Of a DNA stretch of 64,000 bases, positions 3,548-43,495 are shown piece after piece. Each line of letters opens with the position of its first letter. The stretch's first letter is position 1. Under the pieces are notes generated by a model. It did no database searches. It had not been told where the DNA came from and was given only the letters and a program-made list of their open reading frames with translations. The position numbers and the translations under genes are program-made. This DNA is from Gammaproteobacteria bacterium (GTDB taxonomy: Bacteria; Pseudomonadota; Gammaproteobacteria; Magnimaribacterales; TMED112), in assembly GCA_038147295.1 (NCBI GenBank), contig JAYQTH010000002.1, forward strand, positions 74,243 to 138,242, in the 5' to 3' direction.

Positions 3548-4087
3548 ATGAATGACAATATTAAATCAGCTTTAATAATTGGTGGCTTGGTAGGGGGAGC
3601 AATCTTGCTTAATGGTCAACTAACAAAAGAGGAATGTCCTCATCATGCCATGCATATGAAAAACCATGAAATGCATATGAACATGATGAAGCCTGGTATG
3701 AAGAATCATGCATTGGTAATTGATGATGTTGAGCTTGATCAAGATTTTGAGTGGAACTCAGAGGATGGGAAAAAAATAAGAATAGTTAAAAAATCATCGG
3801 GTGATGTCGATTTACTAAAGTCAGATGCTAAAGTTCTGATGTTCAAAACAGATAAAAAGCTAGATGTATCAGACATAGATAACCTTGATATCAATGAAAT
3901 TGAGCAAATAATAGTTCAATCAATCGAAGATGGTTCTGACATTGCTGAAAATCTTAAAGATATAGAAATCATTAAGTCTTTTGAAGATGTTGATGTAGAA
4001 GTAAATGAGTTAATTGACATCGATACTGAAGATGGAAAAAAAGTTCAAGTAAAAGTAATGGTGAAGAAAAAGGCTGAACAAGATTAA
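3548..4087 (+). CDS. hypothetical membrane-anchored protein with His/Met-rich tract and acidic C-terminal region
   Basis: 179 aa with a strong SD (AAGGAGGG) 5 nt upstream. One N-terminal hydrophobic helix, then ECPHHAMHMKNHEMHMNMMKPGMKNH. Internal repeat EDGKKIRIVKK / EDGKKVQVKVMVKK. I recognise no family. Confidence 0.65.
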   Translation: MNDNIKSALIIGGLVGGAILLNGQLTKEECPHHAMHMKNHEMHMNMMKPGMKNHALVIDDVELDQDFEWNSEDGKKIRIVKKSSGDVDLLKSDAKVLMFKTDKKLDVSDIDNLDINEIEQIIVQSIEDGSDIAENLKDIEIIKSFEDVDVEVNELIDIDTEDGKKVQVKVMVKKKAEQD

Positions 4088-30411: not shown

Positions 30412-31668
30412 CTACTTGCAAACAGAGAGTTCAAGCTCAGATACGCCAATAGCTTCTGACATGGCAAAAAATACATCGGTGTTATCTAGGATACCTGAAA
30501 AATTTTCTGCTCCAGGACCATAGGCAAAAATTGGAACCATCGCGCCGGTATGACCGCCTCTGCCTACTGCAGTATTCCATGTGGCTTTAATATTTTTTGA
30601 TGCTTGATACCTTTTGTTGTCTTGCTCAATAAGTAGGCCTCCAGTCTCATGATCGGCTGTTACCAATACCAAAGTATCTTCTCTTGATTCTGCAAAATCT
30701 AAAGCAGCATTTACTACTTCATTGAATTCATCCATTTGCGCAATCATTCCAATGAAATCGTTATCGTGCGAACGCCAATCAATTTGGGAGCCCTCTGCCA
30801 TAATAAAAAAACCTCTGCAATTTTGATTTTGTATTGTTTGATTTGATAGCTGGTAAGCGTAATTAAACATCTGCAACAATGATGGATCGCTATCAACCAA
30901 ACCAAGTTCCTCTTGAGCAAATAGGCCAAAAACTTTGGAGTCCAAAGAGTTTGGTATATTTTCTAAATCGTCTGTCGACTTTAAAAAAACATAGTCCTTG
31001 ACCATTCTCTGTACAAAGTTATTTTCATCTTTTCTTAAACCGCCTAAAGTTTCTGGAATAAAGAAGCCTCTTCCACCTCCTAATACAATGTGATTTTTTG
31101 AATAGAAGATATCAGAGGCAATTGCATCGGTGTTGTATCGCGATGTATTGTGCGCTGCAAACGATGCTGGTGTGGCATGCGTTATCTCAGATGTAGCAAT
31201 GATCGAATTAATATAGCCTCTTTCAAATAATATCTCTGTAATATTGGGAACCGATGAGCCATCTGGTGCTGTGCCAATGTATCGGTTCTTAGTTTTAACT
31301 CCTGTGCTATATGCTGTAGCTGAAGCAGCTGAGTCAGTTACCAAACTATCAACCGCATGTGTTTTAACAAGGCCTGAAGCAGAGAATCTATCAAATGCAG
31401 TAATAAAATTAGGGCCGCCCTTGGTTACTCGATAAGCTGCTATATGGTTTGAGCCCATACCATCGCCTATGAGTAAAATTATATTTTTTGCTTTAGAAGA
31501 AACTGGAGCTATTTTTTTTTGATTTACTGTTTGATCAAAATCAAAGTCAATTAACTCCATATCCTTCTCAGGCACACTAATGAGTAATGGAGCATATTGA
31601 TTGATTAAAAAAAATGTCGCAAAGGCACTTAAAGCAATAGTTAATAGGTACTTAAAGAAGGTCTTCAT
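30412..31668 (-). CDS. phoA: alkaline phosphatase (PhoA family)
   Basis: 418 aa with a signal peptide. LIGDGMG, the active-site DSAASATAYSTG, ..ADHETGG.. and ..HTG.. metal ligands. Confidence 0.88.
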   Translation of the reverse strand: MKTFFKYLLTIALSAFATFFLINQYAPLLISVPEKDMELIDFDFDQTVNQKKIAPVSSKAKNIILLIGDGMGSNHIAAYRVTKGGPNFITAFDRFSASGLVKTHAVDSLVTDSAASATAYSTGVKTKNRYIGTAPDGSSVPNITEILFERGYINSIIATSEITHATPASFAAHNTSRYNTDAIASDIFYSKNHIVLGGGRGFFIPETLGGLRKDENNFVQRMVKDYVFLKSTDDLENIPNSLDSKVFGLFAQEELGLVDSDPSLLQMFNYAYQLSNQTIQNQNCRGFFIMAEGSQIDWRSHDNDFIGMIAQMDEFNEVVNAALDFAESREDTLVLVTADHETGGLLIEQDNKRYQASKNIKATWNTAVGRGGHTGAMVPIFAYGPGAENFSGILDNTDVFFAMSEAIGVSELELSVCK

Positions 31669-32477
31669 TTAGTGTCTAAGGCACTATCTTTGAGTTTTAA
31701 TTGTTGATTTTTTGGCAATGAGTAATCAAAATTTATCAATGCACCTTCCCATGCTCCATAAGTTGGATTGGCAAACATATACCAAGATGTGCCCCAATAA
31801 TCTTTGTATTTTTTTGCAATATTGACTCTATCTTTTGGAGGTAAAAGATTTTCCTCTATGTCGACAAAATCTCCAAAATTATCACCAAACATCATCAATA
31901 TTCGGTAATCTTTTGCTATAAGTTCTCTTCTGGAAGTTTTATTAGAGCCCCAACCGTTCTCTCCTTTTGATAATATTAGATCCAACTTTGATGAGAGCCT
32001 AAAACCTAATTTATCAAAATTATTTATTGTAGCTTGCTCAATTTCTAGCACTCTATTTGTAACAAAGAATACTTCAACCCCTTTTGATAAAGCATACTCC
32101 ATGAATTCTTTTGCTCCAGGCATGAATTCTGCTTGCTCTTCTTTAGCCCATTCAATCCAACCATCTGGGTATGAGCTGCCATTGCGTATTAGGCGAGCTT
32201 GATAAGCGATGTTATCCAAAACAGTCTGATCAACATCTAAAATAATTGCAGGTGGTTTATTCTGATATTTGCCTGTTTGCTCAAGAGCTGCAGTATGATT
32301 CTTATCCGCTATCAATGCATCAAGATTATCCTGTGCTGACTTATATATGGTCTGTGAATTTGCATATGCTTCTGCTGAACTTTGGGCAAATAAAGTTGCC
32401 ATCAAGGATTGATGTTCTTTGCTATCAGAGTAGCTGATAAGAGATAAAGTTAAGAATAAAAACAGTGCCCTTTTCAT
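31665..32477 (-). CDS. class C acid phosphatase / 5'-nucleotidase, lipoprotein e(P4) family (HAD IIIB)
   Basis: 270 aa with a signal peptide. DVDQTVLDN (DDDD motif part 1), ..FGDNFGDF.. and ..YWGTSWYMFANPTYGAWE... ATGA overlap with phoA. Confidence 0.8.
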   Translation of the reverse strand: MKRALFLFLTLSLISYSDSKEHQSLMATLFAQSSAEAYANSQTIYKSAQDNLDALIADKNHTAALEQTGKYQNKPPAIILDVDQTVLDNIAYQARLIRNGSSYPDGWIEWAKEEQAEFMPGAKEFMEYALSKGVEVFFVTNRVLEIEQATINNFDKLGFRLSSKLDLILSKGENGWGSNKTSRRELIAKDYRILMMFGDNFGDFVDIEENLLPPKDRVNIAKKYKDYWGTSWYMFANPTYGAWEGALINFDYSLPKNQQLKLKDSALDTK

Positions 32478-32525
32478 ACCGTTCTCTATTCTAATAGATG
32501 GGAAATAAAAGTGGTTAATATTGAT

Positions 32526-35114
32526 TTACTTTTTTGGAGATAATTCAAACTGGATATTTATCATACGTCCTCTCGGATCATGCACCCTAGTATCAAAACT
32601 AAAGTCAGGCGCATCGTAAAGCAAAGGCGGCTTCTCATCCAACAGATTAATGAATGCTAAGGAACCTATGAGGTCAAGATTTTCAAAATAATTACCAAAA
32701 CTCCTCTTTATAGAAAGATCAAACATTAAGGAAGAGTCTATCTTCGATCTGTAACCGATATTTAAGGCAGATTCTGGTATTGCCCTATTATTTTTGTAGC
32801 TGTCTATAAACCTTGCGATAAGCCCAAATTGATAGTCTTGATATTTCCAATCTAAAAAGCTGTTTATCCTCTTTTTGGGTAATGAGTGGATGTTTGAATC
32901 AAAATTATATCTTCCAACTCTATTTATAAGTTTTCCACTCTCACCCCCTTCTTGCAAAGATGGAGTTAAAAATTCAGAAATTTGGGTGGCTTTTACAGCA
33001 AAGTCCAATTGCCCATAATCACCGAGCTGAAAAACTTTTTCATACGAAAAATCAAGCCCAGAGACATCCGTTACTTCCTCATTGATGTAGGTTGTTGTAA
33101 CTCCAATTAAATCTCCAAGCTCATTTCTAGTGATGCTTGGGCCATATGGGTCATTAATGAGTTTAGCTTGAGCACTTTCAGCAATAATTCTGCCTTTGTA
33201 ATTTATATTCCAGAAATCAAGAGAAATAGCTTGGTTTTCGATCTTCCAGATAAAACCATAATTTTGATTTGTTGCCGTAGAAGGTTGTAAATTTGGATTA
33301 CCAATTTGCGCTTGTCTAACGAAGATACTGGCATCAAAATCTCGCACACTGCCAAGATTGATTTCATTGGAAAACATTTGCGCCATTGATGGCATAGAGA
33401 AAGAAGTGCCACGTGAAAACCTGATTACAAATGAGTCACTAAACAAGGTTGTAAGCGCAATTTTTGGGTTAAAGGATGAATCATTTTTAAAATTTTCGTA
33501 CCTACCTGAAACTTGTAAATCCACAAGATTTTGTAATTCTGTTTTAGTTTCAATAAACAGGGCGCTTTTATTTCTATTGGCATCGACATTTTGACCACCA
33601 CCAAGAAAAAATAAATCTGCTACTCTCAATAGCTTACCGCTAGCATCAAATTCCGTTCTCGCCAGGTCGTTGTAGGTAATTTTTAATGCTTCATTAGCCA
33701 CCTGCGCTCCAAATACAAAAGAAAAATTTGAGTTAAATTGGGAAGATCCAATTAAATCGAGCGAGGTTAAGTTGCCAATTTTCTCTGATTTTTCCGATCC
33801 TCTTACATAATTCACTAAACTTTCACTGTTGAGATTGGGTTCAAAAATATTCCACCTCTCATTGCCATTAACGCCTCCCCTTCCTTGCATCGCATCTTGG
33901 AAGCGTGAATCAATAACATCTGGTCGATTATGAAAGTTTTTATGTTCGCTGGTAGTCAGAGATAATTCAAAATCATAATCATCTACAGTAGTAAAAAAAG
34001 TATAGTTAAAGTGATATTGGCTAATATCTTTGGGAGAAAATGGTGAGGGATATTGCGATCCCAGCGGCCGCCCATACCATCTCACAGGAACATTAAAAGG
34101 AGATGAGCCTTCTCCAGGCTCAATAAGTCGTGATAAGTAAGGCAAAGCTGGGTACGATGGCGACTGTGGATTATCAATGACTCTAATATTTGATGTAATT
34201 AAAGAAATATTATGAATCTCATTTGAAGCACTTATATAAAATTTTGAATGATCTTCCTCATTGACGATATTAAATCTGTTGCCATAAAGGAATCTACAAA
34301 ACCCACTTAAAATTCCACCATTCTCTACACAATTTGGATCTGGCACAATCTGACCCTCTTCATATGATCCACTATAAAGACCATCTTCAATTTCATCTGC
34401 ACTCGTTACAATAAATGTATTGCCTAAACCACTTATAGCTAATTCGGCTATACCATCTATTTCAGAAGCAGATAAGGGCGACCTATTCAGCAAATTTGCG
34501 CCTAAAACCAAATCCCAATTTCCTAAAGTTTCACCAAACAAGAAACCAATATTTTGATCTTTTTGGTTGTAGTTTGTCGTTGTTTGATCCCCAAACCTTA
34601 GCTTATAACCATCGAATTTTTTGTAAGTAATAAAATTTACAACTCCGGCAACGGCATCTGAACCATACAGTGATGTTGCTCCTTCTTTAAGGATCTCAAT
34701 TCTTTCAAAAGCAATTTCAGGGATAATGTGAGCGTCTATGTATCCCTCACCATCGTTTGAAGGTGTGCCAGCAAAGGTATGTCTTTTTGAATTAAGCAAC
34801 AGGAGCGTTGAAGCTTGATCCAGCCCACGCAATGTAATTGAAGACATGCCTTGATCGATGCCCCCTAGGGTGTTTGCCTGAAAATTGGATCCAGATGCTG
34901 AACTTAAGTATTTGCTTATCTCTGCAATGTTTGTGATGTTTAGGTTTAAATAATCTTCTTTTTGAATTATTTCTGTAGGTGTTAAATTTGCTCCCTCATC
35001 GCCTATATAAGAACCAGTAATAACGACTTCTTCAATATCATCATCAGGGAAAATAAATCCTGAAAAGGAAAATAAGAGTTGTAACAATGTTGCCTGTATT
35101 AGTTTTTTAAGCAT
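32526..35114 (-). CDS. TonB-dependent receptor
   Basis: 862 aa. Signal peptide, DDDIEEVVITGSY TonB-box region, plug (..ITLRGL.., ..IEILKEGATSLYGSDAVAGVVNFIT..) and a long beta-barrel. Confidence 0.9.
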   Translation of the reverse strand: MLKKLIQATLLQLLFSFSGFIFPDDDIEEVVITGSYIGDEGANLTPTEIIQKEDYLNLNITNIAEISKYLSSASGSNFQANTLGGIDQGMSSITLRGLDQASTLLLLNSKRHTFAGTPSNDGEGYIDAHIIPEIAFERIEILKEGATSLYGSDAVAGVVNFITYKKFDGYKLRFGDQTTTNYNQKDQNIGFLFGETLGNWDLVLGANLLNRSPLSASEIDGIAELAISGLGNTFIVTSADEIEDGLYSGSYEEGQIVPDPNCVENGGILSGFCRFLYGNRFNIVNEEDHSKFYISASNEIHNISLITSNIRVIDNPQSPSYPALPYLSRLIEPGEGSSPFNVPVRWYGRPLGSQYPSPFSPKDISQYHFNYTFFTTVDDYDFELSLTTSEHKNFHNRPDVIDSRFQDAMQGRGGVNGNERWNIFEPNLNSESLVNYVRGSEKSEKIGNLTSLDLIGSSQFNSNFSFVFGAQVANEALKITYNDLARTEFDASGKLLRVADLFFLGGGQNVDANRNKSALFIETKTELQNLVDLQVSGRYENFKNDSSFNPKIALTTLFSDSFVIRFSRGTSFSMPSMAQMFSNEINLGSVRDFDASIFVRQAQIGNPNLQPSTATNQNYGFIWKIENQAISLDFWNINYKGRIIAESAQAKLINDPYGPSITRNELGDLIGVTTTYINEEVTDVSGLDFSYEKVFQLGDYGQLDFAVKATQISEFLTPSLQEGGESGKLINRVGRYNFDSNIHSLPKKRINSFLDWKYQDYQFGLIARFIDSYKNNRAIPESALNIGYRSKIDSSLMFDLSIKRSFGNYFENLDLIGSLAFINLLDEKPPLLYDAPDFSFDTRVHDPRGRMINIQFELSPKK

Positions 35115-35171: not shown

Positions 35172-35191
35172 GAGAGGGCGATTGCCCTCTC
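35172..35191 (-). terminator. putative intrinsic terminator after the HE-rich TBDR
   Basis: The minus-strand RNA gives GAGAGGGC-AAUC-GCCCUCUC (8-bp GC-rich stem) followed by UCGUUUAUUCCUUCUU. It sits 16 nt after the stop at 35207. Confidence 0.6.
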
Positions 35192-35206: not shown

Positions 35207-37465
35207 TTAAAACTTCAGGCTAAATTTAATACCTATGTTTTTGCCTGGAAGTGGAACTTCATCTTTGACAAAAGATGAATGGTTCCTTGCCACTTCATCA
35301 AGCAAGTTATTCCCAAACAAAGATACATTTAGCTTGCTGTTACTACCTGCAAACAGCTTTCCTAGGTCGTAACTCTTTGTAAGTCTTGCATCAAGCATCT
35401 GATACCCTTTAGTTGGAGTTTCATATTCATTAATATCTTTTTGAGTCTTAACATCTTTAAAAGATATGGCTCCAGAGAATCCATTATTGCTTTCATAAAT
35501 TGCAGTAACAATATTTCTTTTTGGAACTATACGAGGCACAAATCCTCCACCATTAGCAAACTCAGCTGTAACACTGTCCATAGCATAAGTAAAAATAAAG
35601 TTGCCATTTGGTAAAACAACATTTCTTCCTACTTCAAACTCATAGCCATAGAAGTCAGCATCTTTCTGCATATAGTTGGATAAGATCAATCCTCCATGAT
35701 CATGATGCTCTTCGCCTTCATGTTCTTCATCTTCATGCTCTTCGTGCTCTTCCTCAGATTCATCTTGAAGATAAATATAATTATCAACTGCATTACTAAA
35801 GTAGGAAAGATCAGCAAAAAATTCGCCTCTTGCCCAACTCAATGACAGGTCTGTATTATTTGATCTTTCTTCTTCAAGATTTACATCACCAACTTCATAT
35901 CTTGAAGTGGCTAGATGAGGTCCATTTATAAATAGTTCAACAGCTGAGGGTGCTCTAGCTACACTGGCAAAATTTAAGCTTAAGGATAAATTTTCATTTA
36001 AATCAAAATCTATGCCCCCTGCAAAACTTAAAGCACTAAAGTCAGGGTTAAAAAATTCTACCTCGCCTTCATGCTCCTCATGCTCATCTTCGTGCTCTTC
36101 TCCCTCATGCTCATCTTCGTGATGCTCTTCCTCCATTATTGAACCCTCTCTATCTATAAGGTCATAGCGAACACCTAAATCGACATGCCCAAACCCCATC
36201 TCTTTTCCAAGATAAAGTCCAAAAGTAGCCTCAGAACTTGTAACTGGCAACATATAGGCTTCTTCACCAAAAATTGATACTTCTTCTTCAGCTAAATTTA
36301 TAGAAATTTTTCGTGATAAATCGTTAGATGAAAAATCAAATATTGCGCCATATTCGAGTGCATCGTTTTTAAATAAGGTAGGACCTTCGGCATGATCATG
36401 TACATCCAGCATCTCGTCCTCATGTTCCTCGCCTTCATGATCTTCTTCAGCATGTTGTTCTGTTAAAGAGTAATCTGTATCTCTTAAAAAATAATCAATC
36501 TTGCTGATCAAAGATGAATTTAAATTTAAAGAACCTTCTAAATTAACTACATTTGATTCAGTGGTTGAAAATATTCTTTCATCCTCATGTTCATCATGTC
36601 CTTCTTCATGTTCCTCGCCTTCATGATCCTCTTCATGCTCGTCATGACCTTCATGACCCTCTCCATGAAATGGAATGCCATAGGATGACTCAAGATTATT
36701 AAATGACAATCCAACATAGCCCCAGTCGCCTGTTTTTGATAAACCAAATCTTGCTGAGGTAGAACCATAGTCTGAGTTTGCAAGAAAGCTTAGATCTTCT
36801 TCATGCTCCTCTTCGTGTTCCTCTTCTTCATGTTCTTCTTCCATATGCATAATTGCACCGTCAGGAACGTCATAGTTTGCAAAATCTGAATCTTTAAAAG
36901 CTGCAGAGACATTGAATCCTGCAAAATTGCCTGAGAAGTTCAAACCAATGCTAGAGCCATCATTAACAGATTGTGATTCAGAACTTAATGCGAGGCTTAA
37001 CTTATCAAAATCTTCTTGAGCAATTGTATTGTCGACAATATTTATAAGCCCACCTATAGCACCATTAGCATATAGTAGAGATGAGGGCCCTCTTACAATT
37101 TCTATTTGCTGAATGTTGTTTAAGTCAACCTCGTTAATATGGTCTCCTCCAAGTGCAGAAACATCCCTAACAACCATGCCATTATTGAGGATCTTTACTC
37201 TACTTCCAGATAAACCACGAATAATTGGCTGACCAACACCAAAACCATAATCAGATGAAGCAACGCCCAGTAAGTTGTCCAGTGCTTCACCTAAACTTCT
37301 TGTGCCATCATTTTCAATATCTTCACCTGAGACAATGTGCAAAGGGTCTTCAAGTTCATTTGACGTTTGATCTAAAATTGATGACTGAACTACTACCTCC
37401 TCGATATCTTCCTGTGAGAAAAATACAAAGGGTATTAAAACTAAACTTATAAAAAATCTTTTCAT
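35207..37465 (-). CDS. TonB-dependent receptor with five His/Glu-rich low-complexity insertions (putative metal receptor)
   Basis: 752 aa. Signal peptide, EDIEEVVV, plug (IIRGLSGSRV, IEIVRGPSSLLYANGAIGGLINI) and a terminal ..IKFSLKF. HE tracts at aa 207-224, 267-296, 338-359, 444-468 and 569-590. SD AAGGAGG upstream. Confidence 0.9.
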   Translation of the reverse strand: MKRFFISLVLIPFVFFSQEDIEEVVVQSSILDQTSNELEDPLHIVSGEDIENDGTRSLGEALDNLLGVASSDYGFGVGQPIIRGLSGSRVKILNNGMVVRDVSALGGDHINEVDLNNIQQIEIVRGPSSLLYANGAIGGLINIVDNTIAQEDFDKLSLALSSESQSVNDGSSIGLNFSGNFAGFNVSAAFKDSDFANYDVPDGAIMHMEEEHEEEEHEEEHEEDLSFLANSDYGSTSARFGLSKTGDWGYVGLSFNNLESSYGIPFHGEGHEGHDEHEEDHEGEEHEEGHDEHEDERIFSTTESNVVNLEGSLNLNSSLISKIDYFLRDTDYSLTEQHAEEDHEGEEHEDEMLDVHDHAEGPTLFKNDALEYGAIFDFSSNDLSRKISINLAEEEVSIFGEEAYMLPVTSSEATFGLYLGKEMGFGHVDLGVRYDLIDREGSIMEEEHHEDEHEGEEHEDEHEEHEGEVEFFNPDFSALSFAGGIDFDLNENLSLSLNFASVARAPSAVELFINGPHLATSRYEVGDVNLEEERSNNTDLSLSWARGEFFADLSYFSNAVDNYIYLQDESEEEHEEHEDEEHEGEEHHDHGGLILSNYMQKDADFYGYEFEVGRNVVLPNGNFIFTYAMDSVTAEFANGGGFVPRIVPKRNIVTAIYESNNGFSGAISFKDVKTQKDINEYETPTKGYQMLDARLTKSYDLGKLFAGSNSKLNVSLFGNNLLDEVARNHSSFVKDEVPLPGKNIGIKFSLKF

Positions 37466-37515
37466 ATTCTTAAACCTCCTTATTTGTAAAATATTTGAAA
37501 ACTAATTTGAGAAAA

Positions 37516-37776
37516 TTAGACCAATGGAGGGGCTCTGGGATTAAAGCCTTTGAGGGTTTCAAATTTTTCCGGAAAAATTGAAACATCTAGAAAGAAGAAA
37601 TCTATTTTTTCAGCTAGCTCAAGCTTATATGGGGTACTTGCTGCAAACTCATTTTCACATACATGACATTCATAAGTTAGGACTTCTTGTTCGGAATAGT
37701 CATGGCTAATTTCATGCAAAGGAGTGCTGACAGCAAAAAGCATGCCTAAAAGAATTATTAAATTCTTCAACTTCAT
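37516..37776 (-). CDS. small secreted Cys/His-containing protein, unknown function
   Basis: 86 aa. Signal peptide (LIILLGMLFAVS), then PLHEISHDYSEQEVLTYECHVCENEF. Lies 50 nt upstream of, and co-oriented with, the HE-rich TBDR. Confidence 0.5.
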   Translation of the reverse strand: MKLKNLIILLGMLFAVSTPLHEISHDYSEQEVLTYECHVCENEFAASTPYKLELAEKIDFFFLDVSIFPEKFETLKGFNPRAPPLV

Positions 37777-37800: not shown

Positions 37801-37947
37801 TTAGTGAATATCTCTTTTTTTCTTTTTGATTCTTTCTCTTTTTAGCTTCTCGTAAAGATTTTGCGTTCTTTCTTCAACAATTTTTTTTGTTGCGTGCCTT
37901 CTTTCTCTAGCTCTTTCCGATTTTTGTATTCTTTCGCTTTTATTCAT
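37801..37947 (-). CDS. candidate 48-aa highly basic small protein (below the ORF-track length cut-off)
   Basis: Minus strand: AAAGGGGGAAAAA-ATG, then MNKSERIQKSERARERRHATKKIVEERTQNLYEKLKRERIKKKKRDIH*. Strong SD, and it fits exactly between the symporter and the 86-aa ORF. Confidence 0.4.
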   Translation of the reverse strand: MNKSERIQKSERARERRHATKKIVEERTQNLYEKLKRERIKKKKRDIH

Positions 37948-40040: not shown

Positions 40041-40832
40041 TTACTGCAGCCGCTTTTTAAGCTCTAAATATCTATCTCGATATTTATCATCCTCATTGGA
40101 TGCAGTGGCAACAATCCATAAGTATTCAACATATAAAGCCAACTTTTTAAATGAATCTAGTACATCTAAATCCATTGCGTTATGAGTGCCAGTGTAGGAA
40201 TTTAAAAAATACTTCTCTTCATCTTGTGACAGATCCAATGCATTAAGGAGAGTTGCAATATCATAATAAGGATGATTTAACCCAGCATAGTCCCAGTCTA
40301 TGAAATAAATGTTATCTGTATAAATTATGTTTGACAGGTTTAAGTCGTTATGACAAAAAACTAGCTTGCTCTTGTCAGCAGTAACTTTTTTTATAAAGCT
40401 TTTTGCATTCTTGCTTACTGAGTCTAGAGCTTGCTCACCAATGGTAAGGAAATATTTCTCTATTTTTTCCTCAAAAAGCTCATACTCATAATTATCAATT
40501 TTTGTGCTATGCAGATCTTGTAACTTTAATGCAATGTCATAAAGAATTTTTTTATTTGGGTGAGGTGCCATTGATGTGCCGTCAATTTTTTCATAAATAA
40601 CTAAATTAGCCTCTTTATCATGATCCAAAAATTTCGGTGTTAGATTATATGGTGCCAACTTGCGATGGATGCTCTGTTCCAGATCTATATTGTTCTCAAA
40701 AAGATTGTGTTTTTTAAATTTTAAGATCGCATCCATGTTGTGGAACCTGCAGGTATAGACTTCTGAAAACTTTGTTTTTTGAAGAATGCCAATGATAGTA
40801 AGATCTCTCTTAAATTTTCCTAAGTTGATCAT
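40041..40832 (-). CDS. APH/choline-kinase-fold phosphotransferase, thiamine kinase (ThiK)-like
   Basis: 263 aa. Brenner motif CHNDLNLSNII and IDWDYAG. Last gene of the TPP-riboswitch operon. Confidence 0.6.
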   Translation of the reverse strand: MINLGKFKRDLTIIGILQKTKFSEVYTCRFHNMDAILKFKKHNLFENNIDLEQSIHRKLAPYNLTPKFLDHDKEANLVIYEKIDGTSMAPHPNKKILYDIALKLQDLHSTKIDNYEYELFEEKIEKYFLTIGEQALDSVSKNAKSFIKKVTADKSKLVFCHNDLNLSNIIYTDNIYFIDWDYAGLNHPYYDIATLLNALDLSQDEEKYFLNSYTGTHNAMDLDVLDSFKKLALYVEYLWIVATASNEDDKYRDRYLELKKRLQ

Positions 40833-40836
40833 ATGA

Positions 40837-41418
40837 TTAGGCGTTTGACCTCATAGCTTGTACCCAGGCCCTGTATCCAAAAACAATAATTACTAGATAT
40901 ATGACAAATAAGACTGCTGTTGGATAAAGTTCACGACTTAAAAAAAGAAAAACAGATACAAAATCAATGACAAACCAATATATCCAATTCTCTAGAACTT
41001 TTTTTGCTACCATAAATGTTGCAAGAATGGCGCCCCAAGTTGTAAATGAATCTATGTATGGGGCAACAGCATTTGAATTGTGTGAAAGCAAATATCCAGA
41101 AATTACAACTATGCATAGAAGAGATCCAATTGCATAAAAATGTTGTTTCTTATTCCATCTTCTTATGCTGAGTTTATCTTGAGCTGATCTTTTGTCCCAC
41201 TGCATCCAACCGTAGATACCCATTCCAACATAAAAGATTTGTAGCGCCGATTCCATTAACAGCCCCGCATACAGCATGACAAATAAATACATTAATGAGC
41301 TTATTATCCACGCGATCCAACACCTAATATCTTGCTTCAATGCCAACAATAGATAAATAATTGCAAGAATAGCAGCCAAGATTTCAAACCAAACGGAATT
41401 TAAGAAGTTAGAAATCAT
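40837..41418 (-). CDS. PnuC-family transporter (PnuT-like, predicted thiamine/thiamine-precursor uptake)
   Basis: 193 aa with 6-7 TM helices and PnuC-like W-rich motifs (..GIYGWMQW.., ..NWIYWFVID..). Overlaps the upstream TBDR by 11 nt. Confidence 0.75.
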   Translation of the reverse strand: MISNFLNSVWFEILAAILAIIYLLLALKQDIRCWIAWIISSLMYLFVMLYAGLLMESALQIFYVGMGIYGWMQWDKRSAQDKLSIRRWNKKQHFYAIGSLLCIVVISGYLLSHNSNAVAPYIDSFTTWGAILATFMVAKKVLENWIYWFVIDFVSVFLFLSRELYPTAVLFVIYLVIIVFGYRAWVQAMRSNA

Positions 41419-43495
41419 ACTTTAATGAAATTCCAAAATGTCTTGGATCTCCATGCCTACGATACAATGTATCAATAAAATCAGGAGCTTCATTACCAAA
41501 GTAAAAGCCTCGTGTTGAATAATATTCATCAAAAAGGTTTTGCACCCAAATATCCAAGGTCCAATCATTAATTATGTGCGTTAATCTAGCATTGGTTAAG
41601 ATATAAGAATCTGATTGATTGTCATGAGAATCTGAGTAATAAAAACTACTTTTGCCAACAAAGTTAACGGACAAAGAGGTATTTAAATTAAGGTTGTAGT
41701 TAATGCCTGATGACAAAGAAAATTTTGGAGCATGTGCTTGTGCCCTACCTGCAACATCAGGACGTGATACCCAATTTTTAATTTCAGTTTCTAAATAACC
41801 TAAATTAACAAAGGCGGAGATATTATCACTCAAATTTATGTCAGCAGTTATCTCTGCTCCATAATTTAAACCTTCAGCAGCATTTTTAGTTAAATAGACA
41901 AAGGTATTGGGGTCATTAGGATCCACCTGCGTTGAGATTAATACTTGCTGATCTTCTCTTAAAGAACGAAATAAGCTCAAACTTAGTCCAATATAGTTGT
42001 TGATTTCTGCATTAAGGCCAAGCTCAACATTTTTTAAGTGTTCTGGCTCGTACTCTAAGTCAGAAGGATCAACTTGCCCGAGCAAACCAAGACCAACGTT
42101 AAAACCACCCTGCTTGTAACCTTTTGCATAACTCAAGTAAATATTATCCCTGTCATTCAGAACATAATTTATTGAAGCTTTGCCCCCAAACATATAGTCA
42201 GACAAATCAAACCGTTCGTTATTTGTATCGGCATATTTTGCAGACCATTCCTCAGCTCTTAAGCCTAGCGAAAAAATTAAGTTGTCAAACCACTCATAAT
42301 CAAAGTTAGAGAAAAATGAAACATTATCAGACTGATAATCACTTTTAGCCAAGCTTAAACTTTCGTAAGGTCCATATGGATCTGTGGGGTCGCCATAAAT
42401 CCCATCATCTTTTCTATCATTGGTTTCTTCAAGAGTTAGATATGATGCGCCTAAAACCCATCTAAAAGGCTGCCCTATATCTTTTGAAACAAGCCTAACT
42501 TCTTGGTTGAATGATTGTCTTTCTCGCAATGTTTCAGAAAAGTAATCATACGTATATGGGGCATGCGAGTCTTGGTTGCCCCAATCTGCATCGTAGCTAA
42601 AAATAACAAACGTATCAGTTGCACTAGTAAAGCTCTGCAACTCAAATTGATCAAATTCTTTAAAGTATTTAAATCCTGCAGTATCTGTTTTTTGAGAGTC
42701 CATCCCTGGCCTATCGGATAGAGTATTTAGAGAATTATCAATCGTCCATATGTCTGCTGGGTCATCCATATCAACTCGACTTAAAAGAAGTTTGCTATTG
42801 CTGTATTCTGATAAATCAAAATCTATTTTTAATCTCAAAGTCTTTTCGTCCTTTCTTGAGGTATTAGATTTATTTAAGTAAATATTTTTTCTAAACCCAT
42901 CGGATTTATCCTGACGAATGGCTAAACGAAACTTAATTTTTTTGTCTGCTGTTAAAGGTCCTCCAAAAGCTGTTCCTAAACTTGATGTATTGTAATTACC
43001 AATGCTCAGTTCAGATTTCCCTTTAAACTCATCGGTAGGCTCATTGGTTGTGATATAAATCAGTCCTGCCAGTGCATTTGCGCCGATTCTAGATGCTTGT
43101 GGTCCTCTAATTACTTCAATTTGATTAACATCAAACAATGTAGCAATACCACCTTGGCCAGAGTAATCAACGTCATCGATTAAGAAACCTATCGATGAAT
43201 TTGGAGTTCCTAAATACCCAGATCGTTCGCCAATTCCCCTGATTTGAAAATACCGAGCTCTTGAATCGCTCGCTGCAAAGTTTAGGTTTGGGACCAGATA
43301 AGAGATATTTTCAAAATGCTTTATGGGTTGTGAATCTATTTCAGATTGACCCAGAATAAAAGTGCTAGCGTCCTCTTCTATCAGTTTGGTTTCACGCCAA
43401 TCTGCCTTAACTACTACTTCTTCAACATCATCATCTGCTAAGCAAATTGATGAAAGTAGAACGATGATAAAAAGATATTTCTTAGTATGTCTCAT
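41408..43495 (-). CDS. TonB-dependent receptor (TPP-riboswitch regulated)
   Basis: 695 aa. Signal peptide, DDDVEEVVV, plug (..IEVIRGPQASRIGANALAGLIYITT..) and a terminal ..FGISLKYDF. Confidence 0.9.
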   Translation of the reverse strand: MRHTKKYLFIIVLLSSICLADDDVEEVVVKADWRETKLIEEDASTFILGQSEIDSQPIKHFENISYLVPNLNFAASDSRARYFQIRGIGERSGYLGTPNSSIGFLIDDVDYSGQGGIATLFDVNQIEVIRGPQASRIGANALAGLIYITTNEPTDEFKGKSELSIGNYNTSSLGTAFGGPLTADKKIKFRLAIRQDKSDGFRKNIYLNKSNTSRKDEKTLRLKIDFDLSEYSNSKLLLSRVDMDDPADIWTIDNSLNTLSDRPGMDSQKTDTAGFKYFKEFDQFELQSFTSATDTFVIFSYDADWGNQDSHAPYTYDYFSETLRERQSFNQEVRLVSKDIGQPFRWVLGASYLTLEETNDRKDDGIYGDPTDPYGPYESLSLAKSDYQSDNVSFFSNFDYEWFDNLIFSLGLRAEEWSAKYADTNNERFDLSDYMFGGKASINYVLNDRDNIYLSYAKGYKQGGFNVGLGLLGQVDPSDLEYEPEHLKNVELGLNAEINNYIGLSLSLFRSLREDQQVLISTQVDPNDPNTFVYLTKNAAEGLNYGAEITADINLSDNISAFVNLGYLETEIKNWVSRPDVAGRAQAHAPKFSLSSGINYNLNLNTSLSVNFVGKSSFYYSDSHDNQSDSYILTNARLTHIINDWTLDIWVQNLFDEYYSTRGFYFGNEAPDFIDTLYRRHGDPRHFGISLKYDF

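Follow-up and report, generated by a model that had tools for sequence, protein, structure and literature searches.

Here we describe a two-gene locus in a 64,000-nucleotide (nt) stretch of DNA (the window) from a gammaproteobacterium of the Magnimaribacterales lineage TMED112 (GenBank assembly GCA_038147295.1, contig JAYQTH010000002.1, positions 74,243 to 138,242 of the forward strand). The locus comprises a gene for a TonB-dependent receptor of the ZnuD family (35207..37465; 752 amino acids, aa), carrying five tracts rich in His, Glu, and Asp, and an open reading frame (ORF) for an 86-aa leader peptide (37516..37776), which ends 50 nt upstream of the receptor start; these and all features below lie on the minus strand unless stated otherwise. 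An earlier reading of the window from its letters alone (the sequence-only reading) had described the receptor as a candidate metal-capture receptor of an unusual type; the leader, which adjoins the receptor on the same strand, was absent from its account of the locus. Considered jointly, the two genes point to a zinc-type cation importer with a surface capture antenna that would be switched by a metal-sensing ribosome-arrest leader, and we place the probability of this reading at about 0.55. Rather than a new type, the receptor represents a marine branch of the ZnuD family that is strongly elaborated and as yet uncharacterised; of greater interest is a conserved putative arrest-peptide leader whose sensor is likely not for copper, together with a predicted hairpin that would mask the receptor's Shine-Dalgarno sequence. 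For the dominant open-ocean heterotrophs, the acquisition of zinc and other trace metals at picomolar free concentrations is poorly known and lacks a characterised receptor.

The receptor coding sequence starts with ATG, ends in ...IKFSLKF, and encodes 34 His (4.5%), 100 Glu (13.3%), 59 Asp, and no Cys. Pfam recognises both a Plug domain (1.5e-20) and a TonB-dependent barrel (6.2e-29). Read by eye, the N-terminus contains a probable signal peptide (aa 1-18, 37412..37465) followed by the TonB box region EDIEEVVV (aa 19-26, 37388..37411), in which E23 and V26 are invariant across the family; the Pfam match delimits the plug domain at aa 41-139 (37049..37345). Two AlphaFold models were generated. 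The first, based on 17 sequences, reached a predicted local-distance difference test score (pLDDT) of 54.9, left the plug unresolved, and was superseded by a second model based on 145 sequences (pLDDT 86.9, predicted template-modelling score 0.89), which has identical strand boundaries and in which the plug exceeds a pLDDT of 90. With its plug, 22-strand barrel, TonB box, and C-terminal aromatic residue (...SLKF), the protein has the characters of the TonB-dependent receptor superfamily.

Within this superfamily the nearest relative is ZnuD, the type of receptor that the sequence-only reading had invoked, and it is placed first by three kinds of comparison. ZnuD (NF038289) is the best NCBIfam family, at 228.2 bits against a cut-off of 950 (E 2.2e-67, full-length coverage); the best Protein Data Bank (PDB) sequence match is ZnuD 4rdr, at 7.5e-36 for the single sequence and at 1.3e-163 over the full length with the 145-sequence profile; and Foldseek, queried with the confident model, ranks ZnuD first (E 3e-44, template-modelling score 0.81-0.91, root-mean-square deviation 3.0 A). 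The second-ranked structure, the copper receptor OprC, scores 2e-30 and is 14 orders of magnitude weaker than ZnuD.

The kinship extends to the buried metal site. In the ZnuD crystal structure, zinc is held with high affinity by Asp99, His100, Glu340, and His499 (PMC4557270), in a numbering from which that of the PDB chain is offset by 14 residues. By alignment, Asp99 and His100 (chain D113/H114) correspond to D108 and H109 in the apical loop of the receptor plug (37139..37144), Glu340 (chain E354) corresponds to E336 (36458..36460; profile alignment), and His499 corresponds to H517 in loop L7 (35915..35917), such that all four ligands of the structure-defined site are found in the receptor. 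Across 145 sequences of 26-96% identity, H109, E336, and H517 never vary, and conservation of D108 is at least 90%. ZnuD also carries a peripheral His/acidic cluster in loop 3 (cluster 1, HSHEYDDCH), at which Cd/Zn was seen crystallographically (PMC4557270); tract 2 of the receptor lies in L3, aligned to this cluster, and the two L3 Cys of ZnuD are absent. Similar in barrel, plug, ion site, and loop 3, and sharing the flexible loops that have been proposed to act as a 'fishing net', ZnuD (TdfJ of Neisseria meningitidis; PDB 4RDR, 4RDT, 4RVW) nonetheless differs in that its His/Asp clusters are confined to a disulfide-held loop 3, whereas the receptor described here has five His/Glu-rich tracts and no Cys, and in that ZnuD belongs to a host-associated pathogen rather than to open-ocean oligotrophs. 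As far as alignment and modelling can indicate, the receptor is a distant member of the ZnuD family in which the ion site has been kept and the His/acidic loops have expanded from one to five.

All five tracts are located in odd-to-even strand connections of the modelled 22-strand barrel, the even-to-odd connections being turns of 2-10 residues, as expected on the periplasmic side. Tract 1 (HMEEEHEEEEHEEEHEED) falls in L2 between β3 and β4 (aa 196-232, 36770..36880), where ZnuD has a gap; tract 2, with 8 His, in L3 between β5 and β6 (aa 264-296, 36578..36676); tract 3 in L4 between β7 and β8 (aa 340-362, 36380..36448); tract 4 in L6 between β11 and β12 (aa 446-467, 36065..36130), corresponding to ZnuD loop 6, residues 430-459; and tract 5 in L8 between β15 and β16 (aa 569-593, 35687..35761). 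Their pLDDT of 43-60 is consistent with flexible loops. An independent check of the model is offered by the alignment of tracts 2 and 4 with ZnuD surface loops 3 and 6, which comprise residues 233-309 and 430-459 in the crystal structure (PMC4557270). The extracellular position that the sequence-only reading had supposed is thereby borne out at the level of prediction by the model and by the ZnuD loop alignment, no tract being placed in a periplasmic turn or in the lumen of the model.

The tracts themselves are real and lie far above chance or genome composition. A recount agrees exactly with the boundaries (aa 207-224, 267-296, 338-359, 444-468, and 569-590) and His numbers (4+8+5+6+6 = 29) given previously, so that 29 of the 34 His in the receptor reside in tracts. 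The repeat unit said to recur in four tracts does so only in the shorter form HEGEEH; the full HEGEEHE[DE] occurs in three (aa 281, 343, and 453), with the tract at aa 582 carrying the short form. The window has 56 ORFs that are 150 aa or longer, and of these the receptor is the only one with a 15-residue segment composed entirely of H/E/D, the best segment in any other ORF reaching 8/15 against a background of 1.9% H and 6.7% E. The other two TonB-dependent receptors of the window contain no tracts, as had been noted, and only 1.0% and 1.3% His. Low-complexity DNA rich in GAA/GAG/CAT/CAC could in principle be produced by faulty assembly or sequencing, or by a genome-wide compositional effect. 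This explanation is effectively refuted: no other ORF in the window has such tracts, and the 120 best homologues (50-98% identity), which derive from independent assemblies that include single-cell and complete genomes, with few exceptions show five tracts at matching positions. The exceptions are three homologues with four tracts and one C-terminal fragment.

The length of the tracts is evolutionarily labile, whereas their presence and their bordering His are fixed, since indels are concentrated in the tract loops, the tract DNA is repeat-like, and border residues do not vary. Among relatives that are 83-98% identical, indels are confined to the five tract loops and one periplasmic turn, and the tract DNA consists of imperfect in-frame repeats of 9, 12, 15, or 27 nt; H221, H267, H338, H343, and H590 are invariant, and H207, H271, H274, H290, H293, and H358 are at least 90% conserved. 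The periplasmic exception, turn T10 (aa 701-710, 35336-35365), bears a SAR86-lineage 5-residue insertion (LGKLFAGSNS region) and is the sole non-tract indel site among close relatives. TonB-dependent receptors are common phage receptors, and the indels of close relatives together with slippage-prone, repeat-like DNA could be taken to mean that the tracts serve mainly as a variable surface coat, evading phages or predators or shielding charge, with length variation selected and metal binding incidental. We regard such a role as improbable: the border His are invariant or at least 90% conserved, H/E/D chemistry is kept from 26% to 98% identity and across two proteobacterial classes, the homologous ZnuD loop binds metal in crystals, and the receptor gene comes paired with a leader that contains metal-ligand residues.

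The number of tracts varies continuously in the wider family. Among 130 full-length representatives of 30-58% identity, 28 have no tract, 27 have one, 40 have two, 19 have three, 13 have four, and 3 have five, with loop 3 being the site of the most widespread tract. The five-tract form thus appears as the top of a continuum and not as a distinct kind of protein. The most extreme expansion seen is in a relative (P0201) of 868 aa with 66 His, in which a single loop 3 tract of approximately 160 residues is made of DEHH/DEDE repeats.

SAR86 metagenome-assembled and single-cell genomes supply the closest proteins (91-98% identity). At E <= 1e-10 the receptor matches more than 4,351 database clusters, and at E <= 1e-30 it matches 800 representatives of a 50%-identity clustered library; when one genome per species was scanned, 247 species proved to have relatives. 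Of these species, the 80 best are all marine and pelagic, and include SAR86, Porticoccaceae/SAR92/HTCC2207, Halieaceae, Woeseiaceae, and the alphaproteobacterial PS1, OCS116, Rhodobiaceae, and MED-G09. Five tracts are the norm within a very large marine clade, the five-tract form recurring in thousands of public sequences of SAR86, SAR92/Porticoccaceae, Halieaceae, Woeseiaceae, PS1, and OCS116; its members are annotated in databases only as 'iron complex outermembrane receptor', and no description of the clade was found in the literature searched. The claim that the receptor is of an unusual type does not hold, given its ZnuD kinship, its intact ZnuD buried site, the continuous range of zero to five tracts, and the frequency of the five-tract form in the marine clade. 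The accompanying statement, that five tracts are more than in any characterised receptor, is probably true, but only because the clade itself is uncharacterised.

The leader ORF (MKLKNLIILLGMLFAVSTPLHEISHDYSEQEVLTYECHVCENEF...GFNPRAPPLV) encodes three recognisable elements. Read by eye, aa 1-20 (37717..37776) form an export signal or membrane anchor, with a Lys-rich start followed by a hydrophobic core. A putative metal-sensor motif, H21-x3-H25-x11-C37-x2-C40, follows (37657..37716), in which C37 is preceded by Glu and the Cys pair encloses a His (E-C37-x-x-C40; C37-H-V-C40). The peptide ends with the motif R81 A82 P83 P84 (RAPP; 37525..37536), two codons before the stop, succeeded only by LV. 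RAPP is an experimentally established ribosome-arrest motif, known from ApdA/ApdP (PMC10951233) and from CruR (PMC12992588).

Of the sequence evidence for metal-responsive control, the strongest is the conservation of this putative arrest-peptide ORF upstream of the receptor. When the 86-aa peptide was used in a word-index search, close relatives alone were returned; the leader family was recovered by scanning the DNA upstream of receptor loci and by profile search. Of 72 evaluable related loci from Gamma- and Alphaproteobacteria, 71 have a small homologous ORF in front of the receptor gene, and independent gene callers also call an ORF of 81-91 aa at this position. Scanning of upstream DNA identified an ORF ending in RAPP or RGPP in 63 of the 72 loci; the remaining nine comprise eight with a clearly homologous ORF that ends in QAPP (seven: L006, L032, L035, L039, L040, L062, and L083) or RASP (one: L008), in lineages that include SAR86E-type genomes, and one that is truncated. 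The neighbouring genes change from one lineage to the next, so that conservation is limited to the leader-receptor pair, and the genomic context offers no clue to the metal.

In an alignment of 36 leaders with a mean identity of only 29%, C37, R81, P83, and P84 are invariant, Ala occupies position 82 in 34 (RGPP in the other two), and every homologue has a hydrophobic N-terminus. The H25 column is His in 35 of 36 and the C40 column is Cys in 30 of 36, with Ser or Thr in the other six; at position 21, 25 of the 36 leaders have H, D, or E. The RAPP codons vary synonymously across loci, and selection therefore acts on the peptide. The distance between sensor and arrest motif is likewise restricted, the spacer from C-x-x-C to RAPP measuring 40-43 residues in all 46 leaders of the C-x-x-C type (40 in 6, 41 in 22, 42 in 14, and 43 in 4; 40 in the window), and the motif at the RAPP position is followed by two residues in 36, three in 16, and four in 7 of 60 non-redundant leaders. 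A Porticoccaceae sub-type replaces C-x-x-C with H-x-H-x-D-H...C-x-x-S at a spacer of 43.

The features of the leader correspond to those of two characterised classes of regulatory peptides. CruR of Bordetella pertussis, a DUF2946 protein, has an export signal, a C-x-x-C motif, and RAPP three residues from its end, and heads an operon with a TonB-dependent transporter gene; it arrests on RAPP, and copper perceived via C-x-x-C relieves the arrest and leads to Rho-dependent termination before the transporter gene (PMC9426467). Arrest by CruR has been confirmed in vitro, in a 2025 study which also reported that small ORFs with RAPP or RGPP are enriched upstream of TonB-dependent receptors and nearly always encode signal sequences (PMC12992588). 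CutF of Rhodobacter defines a wider 'CutF-like' class, recognised by its signal peptide, Cys/His motif, and C-terminal Pro-Pro, which is not wholly copper-specific; when the ribosome pauses on CutF, a stem-loop covering the ribosome-binding site of the next gene is opened (PMC9973294).

The leader shares with CruR (Bp2923, upstream of BfrG) its place as a small first gene directly before a TonB-dependent receptor gene, the export signal, C-x-x-C, RAPP two or three residues before the stop, and a conserved sensor-to-RAPP spacing. DUF2946 (PF11162; gathering score 23.7 bits) matches 8 of the 36 leader homologues weakly, the best at E 0.0043, and one relative (P0322), which NCBI names DUF2946, passes the gathering threshold at 24.8 bits; on these profile matches, the leader family is best regarded as a divergent edge of DUF2946. 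It differs from CruR in being shorter (86 aa versus 145 aa), in its spacer of 40-43 residues, shifted by 2-5 from the 45 (within 1-2, or +/- 2 at most) of CruR/DUF2946, in additional conserved His/Asp/Glu ligands, in a metal that is probably not copper, and in a short intergenic region (35-80 nt) with a predicted Shine-Dalgarno-masking hairpin where CruR has a long region with a Rho site; moreover, no PepSY_TM gene lies downstream. With the CutF class of Rhodobacter capsulatus (under 150 aa, Sec signal, Cys/His metal motif, Pro-Pro among the final 15 residues, a short intergenic region, and a messenger RNA stem-loop over the ribosome-binding site that a paused ribosome opens) the leader shares its 86-aa length, its hydrophobic N-terminus as judged by eye, Pro-Pro at positions 83-84 of 86, an H...C-x-x-C motif, a 50-nt gap, and, by thermodynamic and comparative evidence, a stem-loop shielding the ribosome-binding site. 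CutF differs in that its downstream gene encodes a multicopper oxidase rather than a TonB-dependent receptor, and in that metal prolongs the pause and turns on this detoxifying oxidase, whereas an uptake receptor is expected to have the opposite polarity, as with CruR. SecM-secA, MifM-yidC2, VemP-secDF2, and ApdA/ApdP offer a further parallel, in which a stalled ribosome, with a RAPP/RAGP-type motif, unmasks a downstream Shine-Dalgarno sequence (PMC10951233, PMC7897499); these peptides monitor protein-export capacity, whereas the leader described here has metal-ligand residues and is proposed to control a metal importer. Judged by its sequence features, the leader is a putative arrest peptide of a divergent CruR/CutF-like kind.

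In the predicted RNA hairpin, present in both the minimum-free-energy (MFE) and centroid structures, the Pro-Pro codons CCUCC of the leader (37526-37530) pair with the receptor Shine-Dalgarno sequence GGAGG (37475-37479; hairpin 37475..37530). We surveyed 53 non-redundant loci over the stretch that runs from the Pro-Pro codons of the leader up to the receptor start, scoring a locus as paired when at least three of the four Shine-Dalgarno core bases were paired, and found the Shine-Dalgarno sequence pairing with the last codons of the leader in the MFE structure of 41. Cognate duplexes surpass shuffled ones in strength (mean z -2.9, 81% below -2), and they also surpass non-cognate pairs, with -10.0 against -7.4 kcal/mol (Mann-Whitney p = 3e-10). 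The pairing register varies by lineage, some lineages opposing CCUCCU plus AAAAUUUAA to UUAAAUUUU...AGGAGG and the Porticoccaceae sub-type opposing CCUCUAA to UUAGAGG, and such lineage-specific registers are the pattern that would be expected of a maintained structure. In the Porticoccaceae sub-type (loci L013, 935-954, and L025, 5915-5938; also L010, L015, L017, L021-L026, L030, L041, L043, L054, and L057) the intergenic region is longer and contains a GC-rich hairpin with a U-tract, resembling an intrinsic terminator and nested within the leader-codon/Shine-Dalgarno hairpin, which suggests transcription attenuation on top of translational masking.

Based on these features, we propose a two-gene module of a SAR86 genome in which the receptor would be a ZnuD-family transporter for a free divalent transition-metal cation, most probably Zn2+. 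The five flexible His/Glu/Asp loops (L2, L3, L4, L6, and L8) would constitute a low-affinity capture antenna that concentrates scarce metal on the cell surface, an expansion of the 'fishing-net' role of ZnuD loop 3, and would hand ions to the buried D108/H109/E336/H517 site between plug tip and barrel, from which TonB-driven movement of the plug would release them into the periplasm. Control would be exerted by the 86-aa leader and not by a Zur operator. A ribosome translating the leader would arrest at RAPP, its P and A sites occupied by the two Pro codons, and would cover the 5' arm of the hairpin that hides the Shine-Dalgarno sequence; the ribosome-binding site would therefore be exposed and the receptor made. 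When metal is sufficient, the nascent [H/D/E]-x3-H...C-x-x-C segment, 40-43 residues behind the arrest point and just outside the exit tunnel, would bind it, and folding of the leader would pull on the chain and relieve the arrest, whereupon translation would terminate two codons on, the hairpin would re-form, and receptor synthesis would stop. Sequence comparison and structure prediction show the anatomy, homology, and conservation of the locus and its RNA pairing; which metal is bound, which way the switch turns, and whether the loops act as an antenna we infer. ZnuD, which is repressed by Zur through a Zur box, differs in this respect: a search of the whole window for the Zur box TGTTATANTATAACA with up to three mismatches gave two matches, fewer than expected by chance and neither of them near the locus, and a ZnuD-type Zur-box promoter was accordingly not found there, a leader peptide being present instead.

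With respect to the metal, we estimate the odds at about one half for zinc, about one fifth for copper, and about one sixth for other or mixed cations. Zinc is favoured because the nearest characterised relative is a zinc receptor whose ion site is conserved here, because the tracts share their His-plus-carboxylate chemistry with ZnuD loop 3 and the ZnuA loop (PMC2895646), and because the ligands of the leader (His, His/Asp/Glu, and two Cys) are typical of tetrahedral Zn(II) sites. It is favoured over Cu(I) in particular because the receptor has neither Cys nor a Met/Cys site, because the sensor combines His/Asp/Glu with Cys, and because a sub-lineage has lost the second Cys of the leader and gained His and Asp at the same spacing, which is hard to reconcile with Cu(I) sensing.

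The same module might instead import and sense copper, in which case the leader would be a functional CruR, copper on C-x-x-C would relieve arrest and turn the receptor off, and the loops would take up Cu(II). His-rich acidic peptides bind Cu(II) strongly (Irving-Williams series), the closest characterised leader (CruR/DUF2946) is copper-specific, one leader relative passes the DUF2946 threshold, and OprC, whose gene is likewise preceded by a CruR homologue, is the second-best fold match. The receptor is nevertheless not OprC-like, since it has no Cys and scores only 28.9 bits on the copper-receptor model TIGR01778 (OprC/NosA; cut-off 472.45); the Cys/Met/His/Met site of OprC is absent, and all four ZnuD zinc ligands are conserved. 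Together with a sensor that has conserved His and Asp/Glu, the loss of the second Cys in a sub-lineage (poor Cu(I) chemistry), and a spacer of 40-43 rather than 45 +/- 2, these differences make copper an unlikely substrate.

Marginally less probable still is that the cation is another one (Ni, Co, Fe(II), or Mn), that the importer is promiscuous for divalent metals, or that a metallophore complex is taken up, with the tracts acting as a general cation-exchange surface. Prediction of TonB-dependent receptor substrates is notoriously unreliable, ZnuD itself having first been annotated as a haem receptor (PMC4557270), and His-rich CutF-like leaders adjoin Ni/Co genes (PMC9973294). The 'iron complex' annotation of relatives and the Glu-rich character of the tracts (approximately 2 Glu per His), which could bind harder cations, also speak for such a substrate. 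Against this, the conserved ZnuD site is sized for a single free ion, and no metallophore biosynthesis or Ni/Co genes were found in the neighbourhoods examined. SAR86 is not known to make cobalamin, and a low cobalt demand is to be expected.

Returning to the zinc-type importer with its arrest leader, a number of observations weigh against it. The ZnuD score of the receptor falls far under the NCBIfam cut-off given above, which belongs to a model of the 'exception' type, made to fit close, Neisseria-like sequences; the receptor shares only approximately 21% identity with ZnuD; and substrate calls for TonB-dependent receptors are often wrong. No znuABC or zur gene is adjacent to the module in any locus examined. 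The window leader itself has no Pfam hit, even at E <= 10, and its NCBIfam scan is also empty. The seven loci with QAPP in place of RAPP are a further difficulty: the analogous R-to-A change abolishes CruR arrest, and leaders with QAPP or RASP may therefore arrest differently, more weakly, or not at all. As for the hairpin, the MFE structure lacks Shine-Dalgarno pairing with the leader tail in 12 of the 53 loci, and the whole hairpin region of the window folds no better than shuffled sequences (z = -0.33). RNAalifold returned no consensus structure for 27 regions from leader tail to receptor start, an uninformative result that we put down to their AU-richness, differing lengths, and poor alignment; the per-locus duplex energies, with their shuffled and non-cognate controls, were used in its place. 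Finally, the sole experimentally studied module of this kind, CruR-BfrG, is copper-responsive and operates by Rho-dependent termination and not by Shine-Dalgarno masking.

A more specific and more tentative proposal concerns the chemistry of the sensor. The leader could be the first zinc-responsive arrest peptide, in which a 'mirror-image Cys2His2' mini-finger of approximately 20 residues, [H/D/E]-x3-H-x8-17-C-x2-C, would fold around Zn2+ just outside the exit tunnel, pull the chain free of the RAPP arrest, and thereby re-mask the ribosome-binding site of a ZnuD-type importer with a five-loop His/Glu antenna. Such a Zur-independent zinc switch would be common to SAR86, SAR92, OM60, PS1, and OCS116, which are among the most abundant heterotrophs of the surface ocean. 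No description of a zinc-linked RAPP leader was found in the literature searched.

The module unites the 'fishing-net' loops of ZnuD with metal-sensing arrest peptides of the CruR/CutF type, and what is new in the combination is a different likely metal, a different spacer length, and the predicted Shine-Dalgarno-masking hairpin. Given that it is conserved in SAR86, SAR92/Porticoccaceae, Halieaceae, Woeseiaceae, and several marine alphaproteobacterial clades, it constitutes a concrete and testable candidate for metal acquisition in the open ocean, and experiments are feasible in cultured SAR92 strains that carry it (HTCC2207, H921, and H246). If the proposal is correct, nascent-chain metal sensing would extend beyond copper, and the leader-receptor pair would provide a transcript or protein marker of metal limitation (zinc stress) in seawater.

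Several features of the surrounding DNA (window G+C approximately 36%) complete the description of the locus. A terminator-like GC hairpin with a T-rich tail (35172..35191), recognised by consensus match only, is situated 16 nt past the receptor stop and probably ends the two-gene unit. Directly downstream of the receptor, 30412-35114 looks like a phosphate-ester scavenging cluster, in which a second TonB-dependent receptor (862 aa) is accompanied by two phosphatases, an acid one of class B (HAD IIIB) and an alkaline one of the PhoA type. The PhoA-type enzyme, which is zinc-dependent and lies two genes downstream, was considered as a clue to zinc and dropped; it was given no weight because its adjacency is not conserved in other lineages and because the terminator-like hairpin separates it from the receptor. 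On the other side, an extremely basic ORF of 48 aa (MNKSERIQKSERAREKRHATKKIVEERTQNLYEKLKRERIKKKKRDIH; 37801-37947), preceded by a strong GGGGG Shine-Dalgarno sequence, separates the leader from a sodium:solute symporter gene. Further upstream, the third receptor of the window (695 aa) is encoded in 40041-43495 with a PnuC-type nicotinamide-mononucleotide transporter and an APH/choline-kinase-like kinase, an arrangement that suggests a vitamin or nucleoside salvage unit. On the plus strand, a 179-aa ORF that has no Pfam match (3548-4087) combines a hydrophobic N-terminus, a His/Met-rich stretch (CPHHAMHMKNHEMHMNMMKPGMKNH), and a very acidic C-terminal half, and its His/Met chemistry suggests copper binding.

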